A DNA stretch of 42,217 nt from Hyphomonadaceae bacterium (GCA_035548775.1 DASZSI010000144.1:1-42217); one strand, 5' to 3'; positions 11,028-42,122 are shown, counted from the stretch's first letter. The notes: a model not told the origin generated them from the sequence alone. A program made the numbers and translations.

Positions 11028-13115
11028 CTACTGCCTCGGGGCTTCGCAGTCGAACACCCGATAGAACTTGAAGAACACTTCGCCGGCGGCGCGGTCGGCA
11101 TCCGACAGCGGCACCAGCGCGGTGTTGAGTCCACATCCCACCACCACGGCCTTGCCATATTCGAGCAGGACCTGGACGTTCGCAGGCTTGGGCGCGCCCG
11201 GCCAAGTGAAGGTGATGTCGTTGCCGTGGACCGGATCGCCCGGCGGTGCAGCGGCGACCAGACGCTTGGCTTCGTTGGCGCCCTGGTTGAATGCGAACTG
11301 CGCGGAGTCGCGAAGGATCAGTTTCGCCGACGCGTCAGCAATCTGCGCCTGCCGCAGATAGAACATCCCGCGCAGCAGAAGCCCTTCCGGTTTTCCGTCG
11401 CTTCCCGAGCACCAGGTCGACATGCCATCGCCGGTCACGCTCTTCCCGCCACGCATGATGTGGGCAAGGCAGGCGTAGTTCCGCGGAGGATTGGGCGCTC
11501 CCACCTGGACGGCGCGTTCCGCGTTCGAGACAGCGGTTGCCGACAGCGGGCTCGCGCCAGCCTTCTGCGCGTCGATCAGGCTGAGGTAATAGTAGGCATC
11601 AGCCTTATACTGCAGCTCGCCTGGGGGTGGGCTGCCGTTGAGGCCGCCGGTCTTGTCGATCACGCCCTGGAATTCGGACGTCGCCTGCGTGAGCAAGCCT
11701 TGCTTGTAATAGCTCAGGCCGATTTCAAATCCGGGCCGCGAAGATTGCGGATTGGCGCTTCTCGCCCGCTCATAGGTCTGGCGCACCGTTTCCGGTTTGG
11801 AGGTCGGCAGCGCAGCCTTGACCTCTGCCAGCTCAAGCAAGGCGTCCGACAGCGAGGGCCCCTGCGGCAGCAGCGCGACAGCTGCTTCATAGACCTGGTC
11901 GGCTTGGGCGGACTGGTGTGCGCGGTTCAGAGCGCGCGCCAGTTTGAGCTGGCGCTCGGCATTCTTCGGCTCCAACCGGGAGGCCGAGGTGAGCTCGGTG
12001 ATCGCCTGCTGGAGAAGGCTCGAAGAGTCGGTTCCGGCGGCGTCAGCAAGCGTAGCCTGTCCGAGCAGGGCCTGGGCGCGGCCCTCGTGAGCGGCGGCTT
12101 CGTCCTTCTGCAACTGACGCTCGGCAGCCATCCGCGCGGCAAGCTCGAATGCGCCCGCCGCCGCGATGTAGCTTTCATTCTTGCCCGTTGCCGAACTGTC
12201 CGCGAGCGCAAGATTGGCGCGGCCAAGACCCATTCTCGGATCAAGCGCGTTGGGATCGACACCTGCCGCCTTCTGGAAGGAATCGATCGCGATGCTCAGA
12301 TTGCCGGTGGCAAGCGCAGCCTGGCCATCGGCGGCATAAATTTTCGCAAGCTCGGTCTTGGCGCTGGCCGCAAGGGTGGAGCGGCCCGGCATGGTTTCCC
12401 GGCGGACAAGCTCTTCAAAGTCCACCCGCGCCTTACCCGGATCGGTCGCCAGGCCGCGCGCCAGATACGAGTTGGCGCGAAGCGAGACGAACTCGTCATA
12501 GCGCGTGTCGGTAGGATCGGAAGCAAACGGGCGCGCAACATCGGTGATTTCAAGTTGCCGGATCGCCTCGGAATAGCAGCCGACCTTGCCGACGCAGACG
12601 CCTCCGGCTGACTGCGCGGTAACCGGAGGATCGGCCTGCGCCAGACCGATGTAAGCGCGAGCGAGATCGTAGACACGGCCATAGCGGAAACGCTGGTTGG
12701 CGAGGACGACGGCCGCGTCCTTCTTGTCGTTCGGTTTGGCCGGGCGGGTCAGTTCCGGATGGTCGTTGCTGAACTGGTTCATCGACCGGCTGATCGCCGA
12801 TGCCGCCGTTACATACTCGCTGATGCCGTTTGCCGTAGCTTGGGCAAGGTGGGCGCGTGCGCCGTTATAGGCTGCGATGGCCTGGTCGCCGCCCTTTGCG
12901 TTGAGATCGACCGCGGTGGCGTCGCAAGTCCTCGCCATCTCGCCAAGCCGACCGGCGTCCGGAAGCCCGACATCGCGGACGATGCAGTCCTTGCCGCCAT
13001 TCCAAGCCGCGCCGCTTTTCACCTGAGCTGCGGCCGTCACGGCGCTCAGCGCCATCGCGGTCAAAATGGCAACTCGGGAAGCGGACCACAGATACCCGCC
13101 CGATACCCCACTCAT
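11028..13115 (-). CDS. Secreted Ala-rich TPR-like repeat protein (unknown function)
   Basis: Signal-peptide-like MSGVSGGYLWSASRVAILTAMALSAVTAAAQ. The long helical-repeat composition has TPR-like blocks (e.g. GNLSIAIDSFQKAAGVDPN, AERQLKLARALNRAHQ). ATG at 13115; the track uses an upstream GTG at 13124. Confidence 0.7.
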   Translation of the reverse strand: MSGVSGGYLWSASRVAILTAMALSAVTAAAQVKSGAAWNGGKDCIVRDVGLPDAGRLGEMARTCDATAVDLNAKGGDQAIAAYNGARAHLAQATANGISEYVTAASAISRSMNQFSNDHPELTRPAKPNDKKDAAVVLANQRFRYGRVYDLARAYIGLAQADPPVTAQSAGGVCVGKVGCYSEAIRQLEITDVARPFASDPTDTRYDEFVSLRANSYLARGLATDPGKARVDFEELVRRETMPGRSTLAASAKTELAKIYAADGQAALATGNLSIAIDSFQKAAGVDPNALDPRMGLGRANLALADSSATGKNESYIAAAGAFELAARMAAERQLQKDEAAAHEGRAQALLGQATLADAAGTDSSSLLQQAITELTSASRLEPKNAERQLKLARALNRAHQSAQADQVYEAAVALLPQGPSLSDALLELAEVKAALPTSKPETVRQTYERARSANPQSSRPGFEIGLSYYKQGLLTQATSEFQGVIDKTGGLNGSPPPGELQYKADAYYYLSLIDAQKAGASPLSATAVSNAERAVQVGAPNPPRNYACLAHIMRGGKSVTGDGMSTWCSGSDGKPEGLLLRGMFYLRQAQIADASAKLILRDSAQFAFNQGANEAKRLVAAAPPGDPVHGNDITFTWPGAPKPANVQVLLEYGKAVVVGCGLNTALVPLSDADRAAGEVFFKFYRVFDCEAPRQ

Positions 13116-13369
13116 CACGTCCACCCACCATCAATAACGCCCAATGGAAATCTTTATGGACGAAGTCCGGGGCCGCCAAAAGTGCTAAACCGCACTAAGA
13201 CGGAATATCAGCGCACCGCGACGCGATTGTTGCAAAGCCGTGCAGGCGCGCCGCGCCGGAGGACGAAACGATGCAATCGGCGGTGGCGTGACAGCGGTTG
13301 TGATCTTACCAACTGTCCACTTTCGAGGGCTGTGGACCGCCTCATCGTTTCGCCCACCGACTCAAGGGT

Positions 13370-14770
13370 TTAGTGGGCCGCTTCCCCCTGCGCCTTCCCC
13401 TTAGGACAAGTAAGCGATTCGCCCTTGTGCTGGCTTTCCACGATCGCCCGCGCTTCGGCCAGCAGGTTGGCGTTGAGGAGAGCCTCCAGTTCACACGGAT
13501 TGAACCGTCCAACCGCGTAGAACCGAACGTTCTGAAGCGCTTCGGTCTCGGCTTTCCGGGCGGCCGGGCTGGTCAGGTGTTTTGCAGACAGGGCTCGCAG
13601 CAACTCGTTCCAGGGAAACAATCCTGTTCGCTCAACGGCGGCGGCGTTGGCGAAGGCGCCGTCGAAATCGCCATCGCGCAGGAAGGAGAAGCTGACATTC
13701 TCGCGGCTGCCGCTAAGCTGGTTGTCCGTCTGGTGCAACCGCCGCCGCAGATTGATCGCATGATCGAGGCAGGACCGCGCCAGCAGCATGCGTGGTGAGC
13801 CCTTTGCGCCGGCCTCGCCCGGCCCGCATAACGATGTCGCGAGATCCATCGTATCCTTGAGTTCGGCTTCGGGTGTATCGAATGTGGCGATCAGCTGCGT
13901 GCCGACGCCATGGAAGGCGTTCATGGCCAGCGTAAGTTCCGCTTCATCGCGAGTGGCCTCGGAAATCTCACCACTCTGCCTCAACGCCAGGGCGTAATCC
14001 TGCAAGGCCTCGCGAGAGCGCCCCAGCTTGCGTTCGCATTGGGCGCGCCAGTAGAGCGGCTGCGGACCCGGCGGGGCGCCGACGGACGCTGCTGCAATGT
14101 CCTTGAACACAGAATCGCAATCGCCGAGCGCGTAGTTCGAACGGCTTGACGAGGCATAGATATAGTCGACCCAGGCAAGGCCGGTGCTCGCTGGCCTAAC
14201 AAGGGCGCTGTCCTTCTGCGCCTTCTCGAAGGACGCCTTGGCGTCTGCCAGCAGGCTGGGCAAGCCGGGGGCGTCCGCGGCGATCTGTTCGCCGGCCCTG
14301 TCCCACGCCAGCAGGGCCGCGGCGCCGCGGATAAGAGCGTGCTGCCCGGAGCTGGCTTCGGAGTGCATGTCCGCGGCGGTGTTCTCGATCAGGAGTTCAT
14401 CGTTGAGCGAATGTCCTCCACGTTCAAGATAGACGCCCACCACATTGATCACATCGCCGGGCCGCGACGCGGCGGCCTTGGACTTGATTGTCGCGACACG
14501 GAATTCGTCATAGGTGCGCCGCACCGCGCGCTCGAGATTGGCGACCTGGTTGGTCTGGCGGTCCGCGGTCAGTCGGGCGTCAAAAGCCTGGCGCTGCAGG
14601 TTTATTGAGGTTTCGCCAAGGGAATTGGCGACATTATAATAGTAGACCCCCAGCGCCGCCGACATCGCGACGAGCACGATAAGGGCCGCAAACCCGGCAA
14701 AAAGTATCCGCCGAAAGCCTTGTTGCTCCCGGGTGATCAGGGCGACGAGGTCTTCTTCCGCTTCCGCCAT
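13370..14770 (-). CDS. N-terminally membrane-anchored helical protein (unknown function)
   Basis: MAEAEEDLVALITREQQGFRR, then TM ILFAGFAALIVLVAMSAALGVYYY, then a long soluble helical region. GGAGAG SD lies upstream of the ATG at 14770, 16 nt after the preceding gene. Confidence 0.65.
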   Translation of the reverse strand: MAEAEEDLVALITREQQGFRRILFAGFAALIVLVAMSAALGVYYYNVANSLGETSINLQRQAFDARLTADRQTNQVANLERAVRRTYDEFRVATIKSKAAASRPGDVINVVGVYLERGGHSLNDELLIENTAADMHSEASSGQHALIRGAAALLAWDRAGEQIAADAPGLPSLLADAKASFEKAQKDSALVRPASTGLAWVDYIYASSSRSNYALGDCDSVFKDIAAASVGAPPGPQPLYWRAQCERKLGRSREALQDYALALRQSGEISEATRDEAELTLAMNAFHGVGTQLIATFDTPEAELKDTMDLATSLCGPGEAGAKGSPRMLLARSCLDHAINLRRRLHQTDNQLSGSRENVSFSFLRDGDFDGAFANAAAVERTGLFPWNELLRALSAKHLTSPAARKAETEALQNVRFYAVGRFNPCELEALLNANLLAEARAIVESQHKGESLTCPKGKAQGEAAH

Positions 14771-32234: not shown

Positions 32235-34220
32235 ATGGCGACCAACCGTAGCCGCGCTTTCTCGCTCGTCGGACTGAGCATCATCGCGCTCGTGATTTTC
32301 TCCGTGTCGGCGATGTCGGTTGTCGCGGCCCTTGCCGGCGTCCAGCTGTCCTCGCAACAAGCCGTCGCATCGTGGCGGAAATTTTCCGACCAGGCGTCGG
32401 CGGAACAACGCGCGTTGCGCGCCTTCGTCACTCAGGCGGGTGTCGCTGGCCTGATAGAGGATTACCACAAGCTCGCCGTCACGGGCGACGAGACGCTGGT
32501 GCCGATGGTCTACGGCCGGGGCGGGGCGGCTCTGGGCGCTCTCAGCACATATCCGGTCGACGGCGCCTCGCCGGAAGAAACCGCGGCGCGTGCGACACTC
32601 CAGGGTCTCATTCGAAGCTACATGGTCGCGGTTGGTCCCATCGTGGCGATGCACCATGCCGGTAAGCCGGCCAAGGAAGTCCTCGCGGCGGCGGACATTG
32701 ACGGCAAGGCCGCCTTCGCCGCGCTTCAGACGCTCGCGACCGCAACCACGCGCAGCATGACGACGAACAACGACGCCTCGGATTCCAAGGCGCTCATCCT
32801 GCTCGACATCCGGCGCTACCTCGGCCTCGAGGGACTTGTCCAGAACGCCAACCGTTACCTGGTCAAGGACGATCCCTCGATACTGGAAGCAGTGCGCCGG
32901 GACGTTGAGAACATGCGCCAGGCGGCGGAGCGCTATGGCCGCCATCCGATGACGGACAGCGAGCGGGCGGCTCTCGCACAATTGGTCGCCGAGATCGAGA
33001 AAGTCGAGGCCCGCCTCGAAGCCAACAAGACGTCCGGAATTCTGTTCTTTGACTCCCGGAAGATACAGGCGCCGCTGACCGAGCTCGAAAAGACTGTCTA
33101 TGGCGAGGCTGTGGCGGCCCAAGCCAACCTGCAGGCCACGCTCACGCAGGTCTCCGAGCGAGCCGGCAATGTGATCACCATTGTCGGCGTTGGCGCGGTG
33201 CTGCTGGTGGGCGGCGCCATATGGCTGCTTCTCTTCCGCATCGGCGGCCGCATCAAGGCGATCACCCGGTCGATGCGTGATCTGGCCGCCGGCAAGCTCG
33301 ACACCGAAATCCCTGCGGCGAGCGACCATGATGAAATCGGCGACATGAGCCATGCGCTTGCCGTCTTCCGGGATGGGCTGCGCGCCAATGCGGCGCTGAC
33401 CACGGAACTCGCGGAAAGCAGCCGGCTGGCGTCGCTGGGAGCGATGGTCGCCGGCATGGCGCACGAACTCAACACCCCAATCGGAAACGCCCTTGCCGTC
33501 TCCTCAATGCTGGATGAACAGTGCAAGTCCTTCCGCAAGGATCTCGCGTCGGAACGCCTGTTGCGGTCGATGCTGGAGCGTCACGCCGCCAGTCTCGAAG
33601 AAGCGGCGACTCTCATCCAGCGCAATCTGGTTCGCGCAGGCGAGCAGATCGGCTCGTTCAAGCAGGTCGCGGTCGATCAGACCAGCGGCAAGCGGCGCGA
33701 ATTCCACTTGGACGACGTGCTCGCCAATGTCGTCCAGTCGCTGCATCCGACGTTCAAGCGCACGCCCTTCACCTTGTCGCTTGGCGATCCGTCCGGGGCG
33801 GTGATGGATTCCTATCCCGGCGCGCTGTCGCAAGTCGTCACCAACCTGGTCGAGAACGGGCTGAAGCACGGGCTAGCAGGATGCGACACCGGCAAGGTCG
33901 AAGTCAGCGTTCGCCGGCTGGGGCCGCATTACATCGAGATTGCTGTTGCCGATACCGGCGCGGGCATCCCCGACGACATCAAGCCCAGCATCTTCAACGC
34001 CTTTTTCACGACGAAGGCCGGCAAGGGCGGCTCCGGGCTCGGTTTGCACATCGTGAAATCAATCGTCTGCGGACCGCTTGGCGGTCAGATAAGCGTTGTG
34101 TCCCAGCCGGGCCAGGGCGCGCGGTTCATTCTCACCCTTCCCACCAAGGCGCCGGCGGAGGCTCAGGCCGGCGAAGCGACGGAGCGCACCTATTATGCAG
34201 CCGCTCAACACGCAGCCTGA
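32235..34220 (+). CDS. Sensor histidine kinase (2 TM, periplasmic sensor, HAMP, HisKA, HATPase)
   Basis: TM1 is FSLVGLSIIALVIFSV and TM2 is VITIVGVGAVLLVGGAIWLLLF. HAMP is RSMRDLAAGKLDTEIPAASDHDEIGDMSHALAVF, the H-box is MAHELNTPIGNA, and the ATP lid is DTGAGIP...GGSGLGLHIVKS. Confidence 0.85.
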   Translation: MATNRSRAFSLVGLSIIALVIFSVSAMSVVAALAGVQLSSQQAVASWRKFSDQASAEQRALRAFVTQAGVAGLIEDYHKLAVTGDETLVPMVYGRGGAALGALSTYPVDGASPEETAARATLQGLIRSYMVAVGPIVAMHHAGKPAKEVLAAADIDGKAAFAALQTLATATTRSMTTNNDASDSKALILLDIRRYLGLEGLVQNANRYLVKDDPSILEAVRRDVENMRQAAERYGRHPMTDSERAALAQLVAEIEKVEARLEANKTSGILFFDSRKIQAPLTELEKTVYGEAVAAQANLQATLTQVSERAGNVITIVGVGAVLLVGGAIWLLLFRIGGRIKAITRSMRDLAAGKLDTEIPAASDHDEIGDMSHALAVFRDGLRANAALTTELAESSRLASLGAMVAGMAHELNTPIGNALAVSSMLDEQCKSFRKDLASERLLRSMLERHAASLEEAATLIQRNLVRAGEQIGSFKQVAVDQTSGKRREFHLDDVLANVVQSLHPTFKRTPFTLSLGDPSGAVMDSYPGALSQVVTNLVENGLKHGLAGCDTGKVEVSVRRLGPHYIEIAVADTGAGIPDDIKPSIFNAFFTTKAGKGGSGLGLHIVKSIVCGPLGGQISVVSQPGQGARFILTLPTKAPAEAQAGEATERTYYAAAQHAA

Positions 34221-36423
34221 GATCGCTGGCGACGAAGTCGCCATCATCGAGGATGACATTGGCGCAAACGGCGCTCCGTCCGCACGGCCCGATCGCGCAC
34301 GCTGGAAAATCCTTGTCGTCGATGATGACGAGGAGGTCCATGCAGTCACTCGCTTCGTGCTGGGGAAGGCCGAGCTTCTGGGCCGCCCGCTTGATCTCAT
34401 CGAGGCCAAGAGTTCGCGGGACGCCCAGACCGAACTGCTGCACCATTCCGACATAGCGGTCATCCTGCTCGACGTGGTGATGGAAGAGCACGACTCCGGC
34501 CTCAAATTCGCACGCTGGGTGCGCGAGGCCGGCCTGGAGGATGTTCGCATCATCCTTCGCACCGGCCAGCCTGGCTACGCGCCCGAGCTAGATGTGATCC
34601 GGGACTACGACATCAATGACTACCGGGCCAAGAGCGAGCTGACACAGACGCGTCTCATCACATCGATGACCGCCGCACTGCGTTCCTATCAGCAGATCGA
34701 AACCATCGAGCGCAGCCGCCGCGGCCTCGAAATGATCATATCCAGCTGCAGCCAGCTGTTCCAGAAACGCGAGCTGGCGAGCTTTTCACACGGCGTCTTG
34801 CTGCAGATCGCGAGCCTCTGCGGCATCGACGGCGATGGAATGATCTGCGCGGCCACGGAAAACGCGGCGCCTGCCGACTCAAGCGTGATCAGCGGAGTTG
34901 GAGCACTCGCGCCCTTCATCGGCAGTCATCTGCGTGATCTTCCCGACGAAGCCAACCTGAAAACGGCGACGCTCGAAGCTATCCGCCGGAACATGTTCTC
35001 CACCGACGGGCCGCTGTTGTTGTCGGTCGATACGCCGCCGGACAGGCGTTTTGTCGCTTCGCTCGACCACAGCCTGCCGCTCGACGCCATGGACTCCGCT
35101 CTCCTGCGGGTGTTCGCCGCCAACATAGCGGTAGGCTTCGAAAACGTCGGGCTGATCGAGAGGCTGGATCGCCTGGCCTACTGGGACGAGACAGCGGACC
35201 TGCCCAACCGGCACCGGCTACTCAAGGATATCGGCGATCATGACGCCGATGACCGATACGTCGCTCTCGTTCGCGTGCTGACATATTCCGATACGCTTTC
35301 CGCCTTCGGTCAGGCCATGGCGACCGGTCTCCTGCGCGAGATTGCTGGGTGCCTGCGCGAGTTGCCGGGCCAGCCCGAAGTCTACCGGTACGCCGAGGAT
35401 GTACTTGGTCTCGTGGTCAAGCCGGGCTCGGCGGCTGAGGCGCGCCTTGCAGATCTCGAAAGCTGCCAGTTCCAGGTGGTAGGGCAGGTAATGCGGGCTC
35501 GCTTTGCCATCGGCTGCGCTCCTCTGGCCTATCAGGGCGACGCCGCGTTGATCTGCGAACAGGCCTTTGCCGCACTTTCGCTTGCTGGCGTGAATGGCCG
35601 CGGCGACCTGGTCCACTTCGATGCTCAGATGGTGAAGGACGCGCGCAACCGGATCGAACTGATCGCCGCGCTGCGCAGCGCGCTGGAGGATGGGCAGGTC
35701 GATATCGCCTTCCAGCCGCTCGTCGATATCGCATCCGGCGCCTGCAAGGGATTCGAAGCTCTCGCGCGCTGGAACCGGAATGGCGCACCAGTTTCGCCGG
35801 CCGAGTTCATACCGCTCGCTGAGCAGGTCGGGCTTTCGCTGAAGATCTTCGAACTGGGCGTCCGTCGCTCGGCGCACCTACTGGCCAGGTTGAACGCGAA
35901 AGGCTGTGCGGCGTATGCATCCGTCAACCTCGCCGCCTGCGACCTGGAGCGCGAGGACCTGTTGCCCTTCATGATGAACCTGCTGGGACGCACCCAGTTG
36001 CCGCCATCTTCGCTGCAGATTGAAATCACCGAGCAGTCGCTCATCAGGGACTTCACGGTGTCGGAGCGCAACCTGCGCGGACTGAAGAACCTCGGGTGCA
36101 GGATCGCCATCGACGATTTTGGGACGGGCTATTCCTCGCTGTCCTACATCGGCCGGCTGCCAGTGGATGTTCTCAAGATCGACCGGCAATTCGTCACCGA
36201 CATCGCGACCAACGACTCGTCCCAGGCGATCGTGAGCCTCACGATTGCCCTTGCCCAGCGGCTGAAGCTTGACGTGCTGGCCGAAGGCATCGAGACCGAA
36301 CAGCAACGATCGGTTCTTGCCGGCATGGGGTTGCGGCACGCCCAGGGCTATCTGTTCGCCAAGCCGATGACCGTCGCACAGGCAGAAGCCTGGCAGGGCT
36401 CGCCAGGCGGAGCCGGCAGGTAG
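34195..36423 (+). CDS. Response regulator: REC, GAF-like linker (DUF3369-style), degenerate GGDEF, intact EAL phosphodiesterase
   Basis: ATG at 34195 overlaps the kinase gene by 26 nt. REC is KILVVDDDEEVH...AVILLDVVM. The GGDEF position reads YRYAEDVLGLVV (degenerate). EAL motifs are intact: FEALARW, SVNLAA, LQIEITEQ, IAIDDFGTGYSSLSY, LKIDRQFV, LAEGIETEQQ, AQGYLFAKP. Confidence 0.85.
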   Translation: MQPLNTQPEIAGDEVAIIEDDIGANGAPSARPDRARWKILVVDDDEEVHAVTRFVLGKAELLGRPLDLIEAKSSRDAQTELLHHSDIAVILLDVVMEEHDSGLKFARWVREAGLEDVRIILRTGQPGYAPELDVIRDYDINDYRAKSELTQTRLITSMTAALRSYQQIETIERSRRGLEMIISSCSQLFQKRELASFSHGVLLQIASLCGIDGDGMICAATENAAPADSSVISGVGALAPFIGSHLRDLPDEANLKTATLEAIRRNMFSTDGPLLLSVDTPPDRRFVASLDHSLPLDAMDSALLRVFAANIAVGFENVGLIERLDRLAYWDETADLPNRHRLLKDIGDHDADDRYVALVRVLTYSDTLSAFGQAMATGLLREIAGCLRELPGQPEVYRYAEDVLGLVVKPGSAAEARLADLESCQFQVVGQVMRARFAIGCAPLAYQGDAALICEQAFAALSLAGVNGRGDLVHFDAQMVKDARNRIELIAALRSALEDGQVDIAFQPLVDIASGACKGFEALARWNRNGAPVSPAEFIPLAEQVGLSLKIFELGVRRSAHLLARLNAKGCAAYASVNLAACDLEREDLLPFMMNLLGRTQLPPSSLQIEITEQSLIRDFTVSERNLRGLKNLGCRIAIDDFGTGYSSLSYIGRLPVDVLKIDRQFVTDIATNDSSQAIVSLTIALAQRLKLDVLAEGIETEQQRSVLAGMGLRHAQGYLFAKPMTVAQAEAWQGSPGGAGR

Positions 36424-36650: not shown

Positions 36651-38720
36651 ATGAAAACCAAAATTGTGGTCGTCGGCCTGTTCTTCCTCGCAACCTCTGC
36701 GATTCCACTTACCGCCGCCGCCCAGCCGAGCAGCGGTGCGGCCGTCGATGCAGAGGCGTTGTTCAAGGCGCGGTGCAGCGCGTGCCATGAACCGGCAATC
36801 GAACGGGCGCCCGGCCGTGAGCAGCTGCGTGCGCGCAGCAGTCAGGAAATCACCGAAGCTTTGACCAGCGGTATTATGCAACCGATGGCCCAGGGTCTCG
36901 GCCCCGCCGAGATCGGCGCGCTTGCCGGCTTGCTTGGCGGAAGGCCAGCCGAAGGCTCTAACAATGCGGGCATCGCCGCTCCTGCGTCCGCCCCAGCCTC
37001 GCCGCCGGCAATCAAGTCAGCGCCTGCGGATGTCGCGGCGAGTATCCTCGCCAAGCTGCGCGCCGTTACGCCTGCCATGGCAGCAAACCCTTCGCCTGGC
37101 GACTGGCTGCAATGGGCGCGCACACAGGACGCCCAGAACTTCAGCCCACTGACGACGATCAACCGGAACAATATAGCCACCCTTGCGCCCGCATGGCGCG
37201 CTGCGCTGCAGCCCGGGCCGAGCATGCCGATGCCGGTGGTGCATGACGGCGTGATGTTCCTGCAGACGACGCCCGATGTTGTGCTCGCCTTGAACGCCGC
37301 GAACGGCGAACTGCTGTGGCGTCACGTCTATGTCCCCAGCGTTCCTTCCAGCCAGAAGATGGGACTGTCGCTTTCTGGTGATCGAGTATTCGTACCGACG
37401 TCGGACCTGCATGTGATCGCGCTCGATGCGAAGACCGGCGCCCAGGTCTGGGACCACGAGATCGAACTCAGCGCTCCGGCGACCAACCGGCGTGATTTCC
37501 AGCTTCGCAGCGCTCCGTTGATCGTCGGCGACAAGGTCATCCAGGGCGTCACCGCCAGCGGAGCGCCCGGCGGCGGCTATATTGTCGGACTTGATATCGC
37601 GACAGGACGCGAACTCTGGCGATTCCATACCATTCCTCGGCCGGGAGAGCCTGGCGGGAACAGCTGGAACGGGATACCGATCGAAGAGCGCAAGGGCGCC
37701 TCCGTCTGGGATCAGGGCAGTTACGACAAGTCGCTGAACCTCGTCTACTTTGGCGTTGGTCAAACCTACGACACCGCCCCTCTGCTAAAGCGTTCGTCGG
37801 ACCCCTCGGTCAATAACGACGCCCTCTATACCGACTCCACCCTCGCGCTCGACCCCAACACCGGGCGCCTGGTCTGGTATTACCAGCACCTCGCCAACGA
37901 CCAGTGGGATCTCGACTGGGTGTTCGAGCGGCAGCTCACGACGATGAAAGTCGCCGGCAAGACGCGCCGGGTGGTGGCGACCATTGGCAAGATGGGCATT
38001 CTAGACGCGCTCGACGCCAGGACGGGCGCTTACCTGTTCTCGATCGACGCCGGCACGCAAAACGTCATCGCCAGCATCGATCCGAAGACAGGCGCCAAGA
38101 CGATCGATCCGAACAAGATTCCCGATGTGACGCGCCCGACCCTGATCTGCCCCGGGGTCTCGGGCGCGCGCGCCTGGCCTGCCACCTCGATGAACGCCAA
38201 GAGCCAGAAAGTTTTTGTCCCGATCACGGAGTGGTGCCTGACGTTTGGCTCTCAGGGCGCGAAGCTTCTCTCAAGTCCCGGCGCCCAGTTTACCAACGCC
38301 AATCACCCGGATGCGGACAAGGACGGCATGATGGGCCGCCTTCAGGCGATGGACCTGTCAGGCCACAAACGTGACTGGAACCACGACCTGCCGGCGCCGA
38401 TCTCGACGTCCGTGCTCGCGACGGCGGGCGGCGTGGTTTTCTCCGGCGATCTTGATCCCGCACTCAAGGCGTTTGACGATCGCGACGGCAAATTGCTCTG
38501 GACGGCGCCGCTCGACAATTTCCCGAGTTCGAGCGTCATCACCTACGCGGTCGGCAAGGTTCAATACGTTGCCGTGGTTACGGGCCTGCGCAACAATCAC
38601 GTCAATGATCTGTCTCGCCGTTATCAGGCTTTCCGCCGCGGCAGAGGTGAAACCGCTCCCAATCCGAACGGGGCGCCGGCGATACAGGTGTTCGCCCTCA
38701 ATGGCGGGGCGGCGCAGTGA
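36651..38720 (+). CDS. Periplasmic quinohemoprotein dehydrogenase: N-terminal cytochrome c domain plus PQQ beta-propeller (PVA-dehydrogenase-like order)
   Basis: Sec signal MKTKIVVVGLFFLATSAIPLTAAAQ and heme motif CSACH (36774..36788). An Ala/Pro linker is followed by PQQ-propeller style repeats (DWLQWARTQDAQNFSPL, PVVHDGVMFLQT, LALNAANGELLWRH, ALDAKTGAQVWDH, GLDIATGRELWRF, LALDPNTGRLVWYYQH, AFDDRDGKLLWT). TTG at 36621 is an alternative start. Confidence 0.85.
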   Translation: MKTKIVVVGLFFLATSAIPLTAAAQPSSGAAVDAEALFKARCSACHEPAIERAPGREQLRARSSQEITEALTSGIMQPMAQGLGPAEIGALAGLLGGRPAEGSNNAGIAAPASAPASPPAIKSAPADVAASILAKLRAVTPAMAANPSPGDWLQWARTQDAQNFSPLTTINRNNIATLAPAWRAALQPGPSMPMPVVHDGVMFLQTTPDVVLALNAANGELLWRHVYVPSVPSSQKMGLSLSGDRVFVPTSDLHVIALDAKTGAQVWDHEIELSAPATNRRDFQLRSAPLIVGDKVIQGVTASGAPGGGYIVGLDIATGRELWRFHTIPRPGEPGGNSWNGIPIEERKGASVWDQGSYDKSLNLVYFGVGQTYDTAPLLKRSSDPSVNNDALYTDSTLALDPNTGRLVWYYQHLANDQWDLDWVFERQLTTMKVAGKTRRVVATIGKMGILDALDARTGAYLFSIDAGTQNVIASIDPKTGAKTIDPNKIPDVTRPTLICPGVSGARAWPATSMNAKSQKVFVPITEWCLTFGSQGAKLLSSPGAQFTNANHPDADKDGMMGRLQAMDLSGHKRDWNHDLPAPISTSVLATAGGVVFSGDLDPALKAFDDRDGKLLWTAPLDNFPSSSVITYAVGKVQYVAVVTGLRNNHVNDLSRRYQAFRRGRGETAPNPNGAPAIQVFALNGGAAQ

Positions 38721-39062
38721 TCTGGCGGGAGGCCGACGGCGTTAGCTGCGAGTTCCGAAGGAAGAACAAGTGTTCGTGATGCCGAACGCTTCCGGGAATT
38801 GGCTCGTGCAGCGCACGGCGCGCAATAGATGACAACCCGGCATTTGACTTGAGTTTCTGCCCGGTATTGCGTTGCTGAAGGAGAAACGTCTGGTTCTCCT
38901 GCAAGGGCGCGGGGGCTGTATTCTGCCGCATCTTCATGCCGTGCGTGGTTTGATTGTGGCGGAAGTCGTGGCTTACTTCACCTCCACGGCGCACGATGCG
39001 AATGCGATACCGGGCGCGCAAAAGCACTGGCGAGTGTGACGGAATAGATTTTGGAGTGGGAA

Positions 39063-39503
39063 ATGCGTACAGCTGCGATCCGACTTGCGGTGCTGGTTGG
39101 AGTTCTGGCTGGTTGTCCCGCGGGCCTTGCGTCAGCCCAGCCCCCAGCCGCAGCACCCCTGACCGCTGAGGACGTTGCCGCGCTCAAGAATCCTTTGCCG
39201 TTCAACAGCGAGTCCATCGCAGCAGGGAAGACAGTGTACCTGTTGAACAATTGCGCCGCTTGCCATGGGTCGGATGGCAAGGCGCTCCTCGACATCGTTG
39301 CGGAAAACGCGACCGACCTGACCGATCCCAAATTCTGGAACAACGGGACGGAACCTGGTCAGATATTCAAGTCGCTTCACGACGGCGCCGGTCCGAAGAT
39401 GCCCGCCTTCAGGGGAAAGATCAAAGACGAGGACCTCTGGCGCCTGGTCAATTTCATACAAAGCCTGTGGCCGGCTGATCGTCAGCCTCCAAAGCAATCC
39501 TAG
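39063..39503 (+). CDS. Small class I c-type cytochrome, possibly lipid-anchored
   Basis: Heme motif CAACH (39252..39266) and distal Met context GAGPKMPAF. The signal peptide carries both a lipobox-like LAGC and an ASA-Q SPase I site. GGAG lies 6 nt upstream of the ATG at 39063. Confidence 0.85.
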   Translation: MRTAAIRLAVLVGVLAGCPAGLASAQPPAAAPLTAEDVAALKNPLPFNSESIAAGKTVYLLNNCAACHGSDGKALLDIVAENATDLTDPKFWNNGTEPGQIFKSLHDGAGPKMPAFRGKIKDEDLWRLVNFIQSLWPADRQPPKQS

Positions 39504-39563
39504 ACGCCGGCAAATCACTGGCGACCAAAGCGCACTCAGATGCGCAGTCCGAATGGGGAGAAG

Positions 39564-41600
39564 ATGATGACCGATACCAAAGACGGCTCGCCGGACGAAA
39601 ACAGCTCGGTGACCAAAACTGCGGACGTTGCAGCGGCAGAGCAAAGCCCGTCCCGTCGGGAGCTCTTTCCATCGCTCGCCGCCGGCGCCGTGGCCGTTGG
39701 CTCGTTGCCCCTGTTCGCCGGAACAGCCCAGGCCCAGAAAGCCAAGGCTCAGAAAGTTGCGGCCTCGATTCCATCCATCCAGATCCCGAAGGAAATTCCG
39801 CAGTCTCTGACCGATCCCCCGAAGACCTATTCATTTGAAGGCAGGGGGATGACCGGCGCTGAGGTTTTTGCGCAGCTGTGCAAGAAGGAAAATCTCGCGG
39901 CGATGTTCTGCGCACCGGGAAATTACACGGTCATCCACGCTGTCGCTGCCGCCGGAATTCCTAGCTATGGCGGGCGCACCGAAGGCTCGATGTGCGCCGC
40001 CGCCGATGGCTTCTCCAGGGCGACCGGTGAAGTGGTCGCGTGCTCAGGCACCGAGGGCCCCGGCTTTACCAACATGATCGCCGCTATCTCGGCGGCTCAC
40101 TGCGCGCGCACGCCGCTTCTGGTTCTCGCGAGCAACGCCCAGATTTCCGGCGACGACCGCGAGAAGTTCATCCAGCAGATCTACCAGCAGCCTCTGACCG
40201 AAGGCATCAAGAAGTACGGCAAGCGCATGATCGCGCCCAACCGCGTTCATGAGTACGGAGCTTACGCCTTCCGGCACCTCAAGTCAGGAATCCCCGGACC
40301 GGTACACCTGGATTTTCCTGGCGAGGTGGCGCGACAGCGCTTCACGGATCCCTCGGCGCTCACCGACTATTACGACAAGACTCGCTATCGGACGGAGTCG
40401 GTCGCCGTTCCAGGCGCCAAGGACATCGACAAGGCGATCGACATGATCAACCGGGCGCAGCGGCCGATCCTGGTCGCTGGCCACGGCGTCTTCCATCGCA
40501 AGGGCTGGGATGCCTTGATGCAGGCGGCGGAAAAGCACGACCTTGTGGTGGCTACCAGCGGGCCGATGAAGGGCCACTTCCCGGATGATCATCGCCTGTC
40601 GGCAAACCTGTCGCCGGACGCCTTGCTCAGCGCCGATCTTGTGATCTTCGTCGGGCAGTACTGCATGCCGAGCCCAGGCGAGTACCGGTTCAATCCGGAC
40701 ATCAAGTCCATCCGCGTCCATCCCGTCGCCGAGGACATCGGGCGCAACTGGCCGATCGATCTGGGCATTGTCGGGGACGAGGGTGTGTTCCTGGACGAGC
40801 TGGCCAACAAACTGCCTCGCAAGACGCGCGACAGTTGGGTGTCGGAGATCGCAGCCGCCCGCAAGAAATACCAGGATGAACTCGACGACACTTATCGCAA
40901 AGGCCTGAAATACAGCGCCGACACAGGATTCCTGCATCCGGCTGTCATCTGCCGCGAGATTCACGAGTTCTTCTTTGCCGGCAAGGGCGGCATCGATCCC
41001 AAGCAGACCCTGCACGGGTGGGGCGGCAACACCATGCCGGGCTATATCGGCCCCATGTGCCGGAGCAACCGGCCGGCGCAGGGCATCATTCCGCCTTATC
41101 AGTTCGGCACCATCGGTCAGGACCTCTCCATGGTGCTCGGCGCGACGGTGGCCGTCAAAGAAGGCGTGGGGCCACAGAGCGCGTACAAAGGCGCGCCGTC
41201 CGTTTGCCTGACCAGCGATGCCGGATTGGGCTATAGTCTTTTCGAAGTGGAGACGGCGGCCAAGTACAAGATCCCGCTCATCGGTATCGTCTACAACAAC
41301 AATGCGTGGGGAACCTTTACCAGCGCCCAGGCCTCGCCGCGGTCGGTGCACCTGCACCTCTTCCAGGAGAACCTGCGCTACGACAAGGCCGCGGAAGGTC
41401 TGGGGTGCCGGGGCGAATATGTCCGTACGGCGGAAGAATTCCGCGCTGCGCTCAAGCGCAGCTACGACATCGCAGCGAAGGAAAGCCTGCCGAGCTTGAT
41501 CAACGTGCAAGCGATCAAGGAATTCAGCGACGCCGCCAAGTATCCCCCCGGCGCCTTGTGGGGCGGCGCCGAACCCAGCGCCGCCGGCGGCATGCATTAG
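39564..41600 (+). CDS. Thiamine-diphosphate-dependent enzyme (acetolactate-synthase/benzoylformate-decarboxylase superfamily) with a putative Tat signal peptide
   Basis: PYR domain GGRTEGSMCAAADGFSRATGEVVACSGTEGPGFTNMIAAISAAHCARTPLLVLASN. PP domain with the ThDP/Mg motif written as SDAG-x23-NNN (41214..41303). The N-terminal extension contains SRRELF, a hydrophobic stretch and AQA. GGGGAG SD lies upstream of ATG 39564/39567. An internal alternative start at 39849 (MTGAEVF) would remove the signal. Confidence 0.8.
   Translation: MMTDTKDGSPDENSSVTKTADVAAAEQSPSRRELFPSLAAGAVAVGSLPLFAGTAQAQKAKAQKVAASIPSIQIPKEIPQSLTDPPKTYSFEGRGMTGAEVFAQLCKKENLAAMFCAPGNYTVIHAVAAAGIPSYGGRTEGSMCAAADGFSRATGEVVACSGTEGPGFTNMIAAISAAHCARTPLLVLASNAQISGDDREKFIQQIYQQPLTEGIKKYGKRMIAPNRVHEYGAYAFRHLKSGIPGPVHLDFPGEVARQRFTDPSALTDYYDKTRYRTESVAVPGAKDIDKAIDMINRAQRPILVAGHGVFHRKGWDALMQAAEKHDLVVATSGPMKGHFPDDHRLSANLSPDALLSADLVIFVGQYCMPSPGEYRFNPDIKSIRVHPVAEDIGRNWPIDLGIVGDEGVFLDELANKLPRKTRDSWVSEIAAARKKYQDELDDTYRKGLKYSADTGFLHPAVICREIHEFFFAGKGGIDPKQTLHGWGGNTMPGYIGPMCRSNRPAQGIIPPYQFGTIGQDLSMVLGATVAVKEGVGPQSAYKGAPSVCLTSDAGLGYSLFEVETAAKYKIPLIGIVYNNNAWGTFTSAQASPRSVHLHLFQENLRYDKAAEGLGCRGEYVRTAEEFRAALKRSYDIAAKESLPSLINVQAIKEFSDAAKYPPGALWGGAEPSAAGGMH
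39651..39734 (+). other. Putative twin-arginine (Tat) signal peptide core of the ThDP enzyme
   Basis: S-R-R-E-L-F (consensus S/T-R-R-x-F-L-K), followed by PSLAAGAVAVGSLPLFAGT and the A-Q-A cleavage motif. Confidence 0.6.
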
Positions 41601-41624
41601 GATCGCGAACGCAGGATCCGGACC

Positions 41625-42122
41625 ATGCAAGTCGCAGCCGCAGAGATGGACGTCGACCTGGTGGACGGGATTCTGCGCACCTATGCCGAAAAGGGCGTGT
41701 TCACCGGTTACGCGCGCCTGAAGCACTCCACCAGCGCGGCGCAATATCGGATACGCTGGTTCTACTCGCGCCCGATGGATGTATCTCTCGATCGCAAGCG
41801 ACAAACGATCTCGCTGCCCGAATTTTTGCCCTCGGTGGATCTGCAGCCCGTGCTGGTGCGGGATCTGCGAGCCTTCTTGCGGGGAATGTCGGAGTTGCCC
41901 GAGCACCGGCGTCTGGATGAAACGCGGGCCGAGCTATCCCTGAGACGAAAGGGCAATGCGCTGACGCTCGCAGTCCGGAGCCTTGATGGCGATCTGGAAT
42001 ATGCCTGCCGAAAGCTGGTGCATATCGCCAACGAAGTGCTTCTCGTCTTCCTGAGCTCGCATCTCTACGACCAGTACAAGATCGACGGTCTTGGGGTCGA
42101 TCCCGAGACGATCTGGGGCTGA
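41625..42122 (+). CDS. Hypothetical cytoplasmic protein, 165 aa, no recognisable motif
   Basis: The ORF starts 24 nt after the ThDP gene, with AGGA 8 nt upstream of the ATG. No signal peptide or TM. Composition is protein-like (MQVAAAEMDVDLVDGILRTYAEKGVFTGYARLKH...). Confidence 0.5.
   Translation: MQVAAAEMDVDLVDGILRTYAEKGVFTGYARLKHSTSAAQYRIRWFYSRPMDVSLDRKRQTISLPEFLPSVDLQPVLVRDLRAFLRGMSELPEHRRLDETRAELSLRRKGNALTLAVRSLDGDLEYACRKLVHIANEVLLVFLSSHLYDQYKIDGLGVDPETIWG

Follow-up and report, generated by a model that had tools for sequence, protein, structure and literature searches.

The DNA analysed here is a stretch of 42,217 nt from a Hyphomonadaceae bacterium (GCA_035548775.1 DASZSI010000144.1:1-42217), referred to as the window throughout, in which a block at 36651-42122 carries four genes (Table 1). 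Comparison with relatives indicates that the conserved unit in this block is genes 2-4, encoding a cytochrome c with predicted export by the general secretory (Sec) pathway, a thiamine diphosphate (ThDP) enzyme with predicted export through twin-arginine translocation (Tat), and a 165-amino-acid protein that would be cytoplasmic. Gene 1, a pyrroloquinoline quinone (PQQ) quinohemoprotein, appears to be a clade-specific neighbour in the window's alphaproteobacterial clade, outside the conserved core. The original prediction, made from the window, had placed quinohemoprotein, cytochrome c and ThDP enzyme in a single periplasmic pathway; its cytochrome-ThDP linkage stood, and membership of the quinohemoprotein did not hold across the family. 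Each part of the module is of a known kind, but no description of the parts in combination was found, and gene 4 founds a family of its own that is new.

Relatives of the ThDP enzyme were found by scanning one genome per GTDB species, which gave 460 loci, and the best 80 of these 460 were used for synteny with up to 10 kb of flank on either side. Neighbours were detected by tblastn with the window proteins, and also by unbiased clustering of every open reading frame (ORF) in the 80 loci. The gene 2-type cytochrome was adjacent to the ThDP gene in 71 of the 80 loci, or 71 of the 76 in which the flank suffices, at a median distance of 17 nt upstream, and gene 4 was adjacent in 69. Genes 2-4 were linked in 67 loci, from several phyla and in two orders, cytochrome-ThDP-gene 4 (49 loci) and gene 4-cytochrome-ThDP (18 loci). 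Six further loci had a partial module and seven the ThDP gene alone. Two of these seven were on contigs that end early and five had full flanks, at least three of the five being second copies in metagenome-assembled genomes that also hold a complete module. Every neighbour family other than cytochrome c and gene 4 occurred in 13 or fewer of the 80 loci. The module was often found alone among unrelated genes, as in loci L173 and L170, and its function therefore needs no co-encoded dehydrogenase.

Relatives of gene 1 were detected by tblastn in only 10 of the 80 ThDP loci, at 21-34% identity, and PQQ propellers of any kind in 17, belonging to three families and mostly to a few related lineages. 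A reciprocal sample consisted of 80 metagenomic loci encoding gene 1 relatives (42-70% identity), and none of these contained the ThDP gene, a gene 2-type cytochrome or gene 4. As the cytochrome and gene 4 are the sole broadly conserved neighbours of the ThDP gene, and the PQQ loci lack them, the unit therefore consists of genes 2-4. The expectation that ThDP orthologues would be syntenic with the quinohemoprotein thus failed family-wide, and the cytochrome, which had been taken for the usual electron acceptor of gene 1, proved instead to be the neighbour of the ThDP gene. The statement that no example of such a combination had been described still holds after literature searches, which found no description of periplasmic or Tat-exported ThDP enzymes or of ThDP-cytochrome c pairs.

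Table 1. Features of the four-gene block (positions counted from the first nucleotide of the window)
Feature	Position (nt)	Strand	Description
Gene 1, quinohemoprotein	36651-38720	+	Predicted Sec export; N-terminal haem c, Ala/Pro linker, 8-bladed PQQ propeller
CSACH haem motif	36774-36788		Gene 1, residues 42-46
WDLD	37905-37916		Gene 1, residues 419-422, metal-site signature (DxD)
Gap between genes 1 and 2	38721-39062		342 nt
Gene 2, soluble class I cytochrome c	39063-39503	+	Predicted Sec export
CAACH haem motif	39252-39266		Gene 2
MPAF, axial Met	39399-39410		Gene 2
Gene 3, ThDP enzyme	39564-41600	+	Predicted Tat export; TPP_enzyme_N/M/C
SRRELF leader motif	39651-39668		Gene 3
AQA|Q cleavage site	near 39726-39737		Gene 3
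IPSIQIPKEIP	39768-39800		Gene 3, extension of exported form
GGRTE	39969-39983		Gene 3, with catalytic Glu E140
GQYCMP	40653-40670		Gene 3
GVGPQSAYKG	41163-41192		Gene 3, 10-residue family insertion before ThDP motif
SDAG...YNNN	41214-41303		Gene 3, Mg-ThDP motif
C-terminal His	41595-41597		Gene 3, His678, invariant
Gene 4, 165-aa protein	41625-42122	+	No signal peptide; conserved family
P-E-H-R-R	41898-41912		Gene 4

Domains were searched in Pfam, NCBIfam and PDB; AlphaFold2 (AF2) models were compared using Foldseek, profiles using hhalign and RNA against Rfam. ORF calls and Pfam bore out the four co-directional genes, their gaps of 342, 60 and 24 nt, and the PQQ, cytochrome c and TPP_enzyme_N/M/C domains named beforehand. 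Gene 2 proved, as proposed, to be a small class I cytochrome c (PF00034, 9e-13), with the haem motif CAACH and an axial methionine in MPAF. CxxCH was kept in all 69 gene 2 homologues. Lipoprotein anchoring was considered as a trait of the cytochrome family and rejected: the window copy has LAGC, and a lipobox was present in only 3 of the 69. One cytochrome homologue, 56% identical, lies 5 nt upstream of a Tat-ThDP gene, and another, 39% identical, has no such neighbour. Because adjacency is seen at 56% and not at 39% identity, and because the 80 PQQ loci lack the cytochrome, gene 2 is, judged by its neighbourhood, the dedicated partner of the ThDP enzyme.

Gene 3 matched the Pfam domains TPP_enzyme_N (6e-23), TPP_enzyme_M (8e-21) and TPP_enzyme_C (1e-17). 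Its family comprised 1,905 clusters at E <= 1e-20, and signatures and the twin-arginine (RR) motif were counted over the best 120 of these, all of which are 63-100% identical and 633-686 amino acids long. Identity across phyla is 63-70%, which points to a specific, strongly selected function. The twin-arginine leader recognised in the window (SRRELF...AQA) is shared by the family, in that 116 of the 120 relatives have the motif S/T-R-R-x-F-L followed by a hydrophobic stretch; in three of the four exceptions the start had been called too late, and the fourth (SRRSFW) escaped the regular expression. Of the 7 family leaders tested, 3 exceeded the cutoff of the curated Tat-signal model TIGR01409. 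Tat export is thus a predicted trait of the ThDP family, and a family-wide RR leader fits the export of a cofactor-loaded oligomeric enzyme.

The ThDP site is intact. GGRxE and YNN were present in 120 of 120 homologues, and in an alignment of the window enzyme with E. coli PoxB, Gcl, IlvI and Oxc (from the MG1655 genome) E140 in GGRTE and the SDAG...YNNN motif aligned with their counterparts. The 9-residue FAD-binding loop (GMxGxxG...) is deleted from gene 3, the ADP-binding, FAD-free Oxc having an 8-residue gap at the same place, and the G-x-R-F(D-D-R) motif is replaced by GQYCMPSPGEY. On sequence, gene 3 appears to fall outside the flavin-dependent branch formed by pyruvate oxidase, acetohydroxyacid synthase (AHAS), glyoxylate carboligase and cyclohexane-1,2-dione hydrolase (CDH). 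PGNYT is a further family signature. The last residue is His in 120/120 homologues, the typical tail being EPGVGAFAH, and also in a cytoplasmic homologue from Rhizobium; this His could act as a lid over the active site or contact a metal or haem. Acetolactate synthase was rejected as an identity for gene 3, as the best NCBIfam scores, 163 bits for NF004516 (cutoff 587) and 159 for TIGR00118 (cutoff 538), lie below the family thresholds. None of 50 NCBIfam models reached its cutoff with gene 3, and "acetolactate synthase" is therefore a superfamily label only.

The Rhizobium homologue, which came from a plasmid search and served as a control, is 59% identical and is encoded on conjugative plasmid p3 of a cultured strain, Rhizobium leguminosarum GLR17 (locus L177, 9980-11821; NZ_CP071629.1 254621-256462), between two short-chain dehydrogenase/reductase (SDR) genes and a nonribosomal peptide synthetase (NRPS)/TauD secondary-metabolite cluster that also includes a phosphopantetheinyl transferase. 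It has neither signal peptide nor N-terminal extension, and neither the cytochrome nor gene 4 is nearby. Cytochrome and gene 4 therefore go only with the exported form, and the catalytic core common to both forms does not of itself call for a cytochrome. This homologue could serve as a tractable model for the core chemistry of the family.

No match to gene 4 was found by sequence in Pfam, NCBIfam or PDB, and profile searches of Pfam and PDB were also empty. An exhaustive search placed it in a family of 335 clusters, nearly all of them stand-alone proteins of 150-190 amino acids, with no informative fusion among them; conserved residues include W45-H46 and P-E-H-R-R. The AF2 model (pLDDT 89.6) has an alpha-beta4-alpha-beta2-alpha fold. 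Foldseek gave no match to it at E <= 0.001, and the best TM-scores (0.4-0.55) were with ExsC-type secretion chaperones and a small Pseudomonas regulator. A role as AHAS small subunit of the IlvH/IlvN type was rejected, hhalign giving a probability of 0.1% against E. coli IlvH. By analogy with the operons of other exported enzymes, gene 4 is a candidate export or assembly chaperone.

The reading that we favour, with belief and doubt close to balance, is that the ThDP enzyme is a periplasmic oxidoreductase which passes the electrons of a carbanion to its dedicated cytochrome, gene 4 being an export or assembly chaperone. The enzyme would load Mg-ThDP and fold in the cytoplasm, aided or proof-read by the gene 4 protein, and would then be exported folded by the Tat pathway. 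In the periplasm ThDP would add to a carbonyl, which might be that of a 2-oxo acid, an aldehyde, or an alpha-dicarbonyl or alpha-hydroxyketone such as a keto-sugar. Decarboxylation or C-C cleavage would yield a carbanion/enamine (Breslow-type) intermediate, to be oxidised by the co-encoded soluble cytochrome c in two one-electron steps, with the electrons entering the respiratory chain, and hydrolysis of the acyl-ThDP would release a carboxylic acid. By oxidising an alcohol, polyol or sugar, the neighbouring PQQ quinohemoprotein may be the source of this carbonyl in the window's lineage. A carbohydrate-derived carbonyl is a reasonable guess for the substrate, because of the minor neighbours of the module and the likeness of gene 1 to sorbose dehydrogenase. 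The sharper proposal of a natural flavin-free ThDP:cytochrome c oxidoreductase, in which haem oxidises the Breslow intermediate directly and gene 4 represents a new class of Tat-substrate chaperone, we consider possible but doubtful.

The oxidoreductase reading is suggested by the layout, because an RR-leader enzyme with a cytochrome gene upstream and a small protein restricted to the exported form matches periplasmic dehydrogenase modules that include a cytochrome acceptor and a Tat chaperone. With benzaldehyde lyase (BAL), one of the nearest PDB relatives of gene 3, flavin-free oxidation of aldehydes has been demonstrated, in which an artificial oxidant takes two electrons, one after the other, from the Breslow intermediate (PMC12352684); chemistry of this kind is therefore feasible. 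Several observations weigh on the other side. The window's own leader is a weak Tat-type match (TIGR02811, 14.7 bits) and scores poorly against curated Tat models. The ThDP enzyme shows no evident redox cofactor, the FAD loop and RFDDR-type motif being missing and this region resembling that of the ADP-binding oxalyl-CoA decarboxylase (OXC), and we know of no natural precedent for direct ThDP-to-haem transfer. The AF2 model of the enzyme, built from a 22-sequence alignment, is poor (mean pLDDT 57, below 50 in the N-terminal half). The Rhizobium homologue lies in an NRPS cluster with no cytochrome, so the core chemistry need not be oxidative. Finally, gene 4 resembles secretion chaperones only weakly (TM 0.4-0.55, with Foldseek E > 0.01).

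Much of the same evidence can be read as pointing to a redox-neutral enzyme, a periplasmic C-C lyase, hydrolase or decarboxylase acting on the products of periplasmic dehydrogenases (1,2-diones, acyloins, 2-keto-aldonic acids or keto-sugars), with the cytochrome serving those dehydrogenases, which would be encoded nearby in some lineages (in the window, the PQQ quinohemoprotein) and elsewhere in others. This alternative stands close to the original prediction. Gene 3 has no flavin site, and its nearest characterised relatives, BbmA, OXC, HACL (2-hydroxyacyl-CoA lyase) and BAL, are redox-neutral lyases, ligases and decarboxylases. The cytochrome-free cytoplasmic homologue beside two SDR dehydrogenases would be a cytoplasmic version of the "oxidise then ThDP" layout. 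Gene 1 orthologues stay near the module through three rearrangements in the window's clade, and among solved structures gene 1 comes nearest to sorbose dehydrogenase, an enzyme whose pathway yields a 2-keto acid. The minor neighbours (three PQQ families, xylose-isomerase-like triosephosphate isomerase (TIM) barrels and 3-keto-disaccharide hydrolases; 17/80 loci) point the same way. Redox-neutral chemistry leaves unexplained, however, why it is the cytochrome and not a dehydrogenase that is fixed to the ThDP gene in 71/76 informative loci; gene 1 already has a haem domain of its own, and the PQQ relatives were accompanied by a gene 2-type cytochrome in 0/80 loci. We regard it as unlikely, though a serious competitor. 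Substrate identity could not be taken from the neighbours, which give hints of carbohydrate oxidation but are each limited to 13/80 loci or fewer in related lineages and are not decisive. A protein of approximately 490 amino acids with an N-terminal cytochrome c and a C-terminal copper type II monooxygenase domain was also seen, in 10 of the 80 ThDP loci (for example L032, 7913-9385).

A different assignment for gene 4, with the rest of the favoured reading unchanged, would make it a small subunit that hitch-hikes on the RR leader of the ThDP enzyme, or else a cytoplasmic regulator of the operon. Gene 4 has no signal peptide yet is strictly tied to the exported form, Tat hitch-hiking of leaderless subunits is established (PaoABC), and the top match by TM-score is the small regulator-like 8q8o (TM 0.48-0.55). 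We consider this assignment improbable, given the lack of likeness to IlvH (hhalign probability 0.1%), the absence of a detectable DNA-binding domain in Pfam sequence and profile searches, and fold matches that are non-significant for either role. Chance adjacency of four functionally unrelated genes would account for the 342-nt gap and for the lack of a PQQ gene in most ThDP loci. It is refuted for genes 2-4 by their linkage across phyla in both orders. In four lineages of the clade the module again has a gene 1 orthologue close by, and for the block as a whole we find chance hardly credible. The oxidoreductase with a dedicated cytochrome and a chaperone thus remains our preferred, tentative reading.

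The association of gene 1 with the module is confined to close relatives of the window. Among loci in which the ThDP enzyme is 77-93% identical, gene 1 orthologues (78-87% identical) were found within approximately 7 kb of the module in four lineages and were missing in two. The orthologue is upstream and co-directional in L081, as in the window, downstream and convergent in L084 and L174, and approximately 6 kb downstream past three other genes in L176; it is absent from L001, L085, L175 and L173. That proximity outlasts rearrangement suggests that in this clade the link is real, though facultative, and a local functional link between gene 1 and the module is plausible. A trio of genes was also noted beside the module in this clade, encoding a PSD3/5/4-PSCyt3-PSD2 lipoprotein with one CxxCH, a Sec-exported protein of 459-461 amino acids, and a DUF1552 (HXXSHH) protein with an RR leader. 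The trio occupies 12803-17465 of L081, occurs as well in L084, L174, L085, L175, L001 and L176, and is a more regular companion of the module in this clade than gene 1; in the window, which ends 95 nt past gene 4, it probably lies just beyond the end. The function of this PSD/PSCyt3-DUF1552 trio is not known in the literature (PMC5615132).

Gene 1 itself has a Sec-type leader, the CSACH motif within a weak Cytochrome_CBB3 match (residues 32-92), an Ala/Pro-rich linker at approximately 100-135 and the propeller at residues 143-646 (Pfam PQQ, 1.2e-63). The N-terminal position of the haem had been pointed out in the original prediction and is correct, CSACH preceding the propeller in the window and likewise in the L081 and L084 orthologues. 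A type II quinohemoprotein alcohol dehydrogenase (ADH IIB/IIG) was rejected as an identity for gene 1, as the haem motif is N-terminal and not C-terminal of the propeller. Gene 1 scored below the curated NCBIfam cutoff of the methanol/ethanol family, and its nearest PDB entry was 4MH1, sorbose dehydrogenase (1.4e-74). WDLD of gene 1 aligns with WDYD of a canonical XoxF-type PQQ alcohol dehydrogenase (PQQ-ADH) in locus L034, and 4MH1 carries WDQE at this position. As DxD at the catalytic Asp is a signature of lanthanide-dependent 8-bladed PQQ dehydrogenases (bioRxiv 10.64898/2026.07.10.737718), gene 1 is possibly a quinohemoprotein that depends on lanthanides and carries its haem at the N-terminus.

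The 342-nt gap is long enough to hold a promoter for the core module. What precedes the module in L084 and L174 is a divergent intergenic region without a PQQ gene, and the module can therefore be expressed independently. Promoter and terminator scans of the block gave no signal above shuffle expectation, and an Rfam scan of the block gave no match. Conservation of the gap against L081 is patchy, and no clear common element emerged when the sequences upstream of the cytochrome gene were aligned between relatives. At 38760-38790, just past the gene 1 stop, a segment conserved against L081, ACAAGTGTTCGTGATGC, holds the inverted repeat GAACA-AG-TGTTC, which could serve as a regulator site or belong to a weak terminator. 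On the same strand as gene 1 and directly upstream of it are genes for a HAMP histidine kinase (32235-34220) and a response-regulator-DUF3369-EAL protein, whose longest ORF (34096-36423) overlaps the kinase gene by approximately 125 nt. This pair is a possible local regulator linked to c-di-GMP, and it is not conserved beside the module in relatives. No link to the block was found for the other genes of the window (NDH-2, cyclase, patatin, major facilitator superfamily transporter, TonB receptor, MacB/HlyD, histidine kinase and response regulator-EAL). On the - strand at 11028-14770, two long ORFs of 698 and 466 amino acids with high GC at third codon positions had no Pfam match at E <= 1e-5.

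In textbooks, ThDP enzymes are catalysts of the cytoplasm. If the favoured reading is correct, periplasmic oxidation linked to respiration would gain, through an exported ThDP family that has its own cytochrome c, a new cofactor class beside PQQ, flavin, molybdenum and haem. On the sharper proposal, Acidobacteriota, Planctomycetota and some Proteobacteria would have a hitherto unrecognised periplasmic electron route from 2-oxo acids, aldehydes or keto-sugars to aerobic respiration. The family is not rare, being present in 460 GTDB species, among them abundant and poorly cultured soil and freshwater bacteria, and is hidden behind the pipeline labels "acetolactate synthase-like" and "thiamine pyrophosphate-binding protein". 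To our knowledge, one-electron oxidation of the ThDP Breslow intermediate has so far been seen only as an engineered "new-to-nature" activity of benzaldehyde lyase, and the module may offer a template from nature for present efforts to engineer single-electron ThDP biocatalysis.

Among known ThDP enzymes, gene 3 is closest to the flavin-free branch, its best matches being PDB 8x3x (5e-41), 8vzk (4e-37) and 2ag0 (6e-30). OXC, 2-hydroxyacyl-CoA lyase/synthase (HACL/HACS), BAL and BbmA share the TPP_N/M/C architecture with gene 3, and OXC also the gap at the FAD loop. HACS, BAL and OXC were the top Foldseek matches of the gene 3 model, a comparison which at pLDDT 57 merely repeats the sequence ranking and is uninformative on cofactors or docking. 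Identity to OXC, HACL, BAL and BbmA is only approximately 20-25%, and these enzymes are cytoplasmic or peroxisomal, act mostly on CoA thioesters, and have neither signal peptide nor cytochrome partner, whereas the gene 3 family has its own GVGPQxxYKG insertion, GQYCMP, PGNYT, N-terminal extension and C-terminal His. A search for literature on BbmA found none. CDH and IolD belong to the same superfamily and cleave cyclic 1,2-diones, the C-C bond chemistry to which the original prediction appealed; CDH is only a distant match of gene 3 (2pgn, 1.5e-15; Foldseek rank 37 with the same pLDDT 57 model), and is an FAD-binding enzyme that lacks both a Tat leader and a cytochrome partner. Pyruvate oxidase (PoxB/POX), again of this superfamily, is a functional analogy for the favoured reading, since it carries out an oxidative decarboxylation in which electrons of the ThDP intermediate pass to the respiratory chain. 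PoxB works with FAD and quinone on the cytoplasmic side of the membrane, whereas gene 3 has no FAD loop or G-x-R-F, is predicted to be periplasmic and has a c-type cytochrome as partner.

An N-terminal haem c followed by a PQQ propeller is the domain order reported for polyvinyl-alcohol dehydrogenase (PVADH), although a literature search on PVADH domain order found nothing relevant and no PVADH sequence was among the PDB and NCBIfam matches. The polyvinyl alcohol (PVA) loci (pvaA/pvaB; oph-pvadh-cytC) resemble the block in this domain order and in a small cytochrome c gene nearby. They differ in having a serine hydrolase (OPH) gene, of which there is none among the four genes of the block, where the cytochrome belongs to the ThDP module and gene 1 has sorbose dehydrogenase as its nearest solved relative. 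Gene 4 resembles the Tat redox-enzyme maturation proteins NapD, TorD and DmsD in being small, leaderless and in the same operon as a Tat-exported cofactor enzyme, and in being absent where the enzyme is not exported; it has no sequence likeness or significant fold likeness to them (Pfam, PDB, Foldseek). Periplasmic dehydrogenases are typically encoded beside their cytochrome c acceptor, as in MxaF/cytochrome cL, PQQ-ADH/cytochrome c550 and the Tat-exported NicA2/CycN. We know of no ThDP example of such a pair. The module is like these systems in placing a periplasmic cofactor enzyme, here predicted from the genes, beside a small class I cytochrome c, but the cofactor is PQQ or flavin in the known pairs and ThDP in the module.

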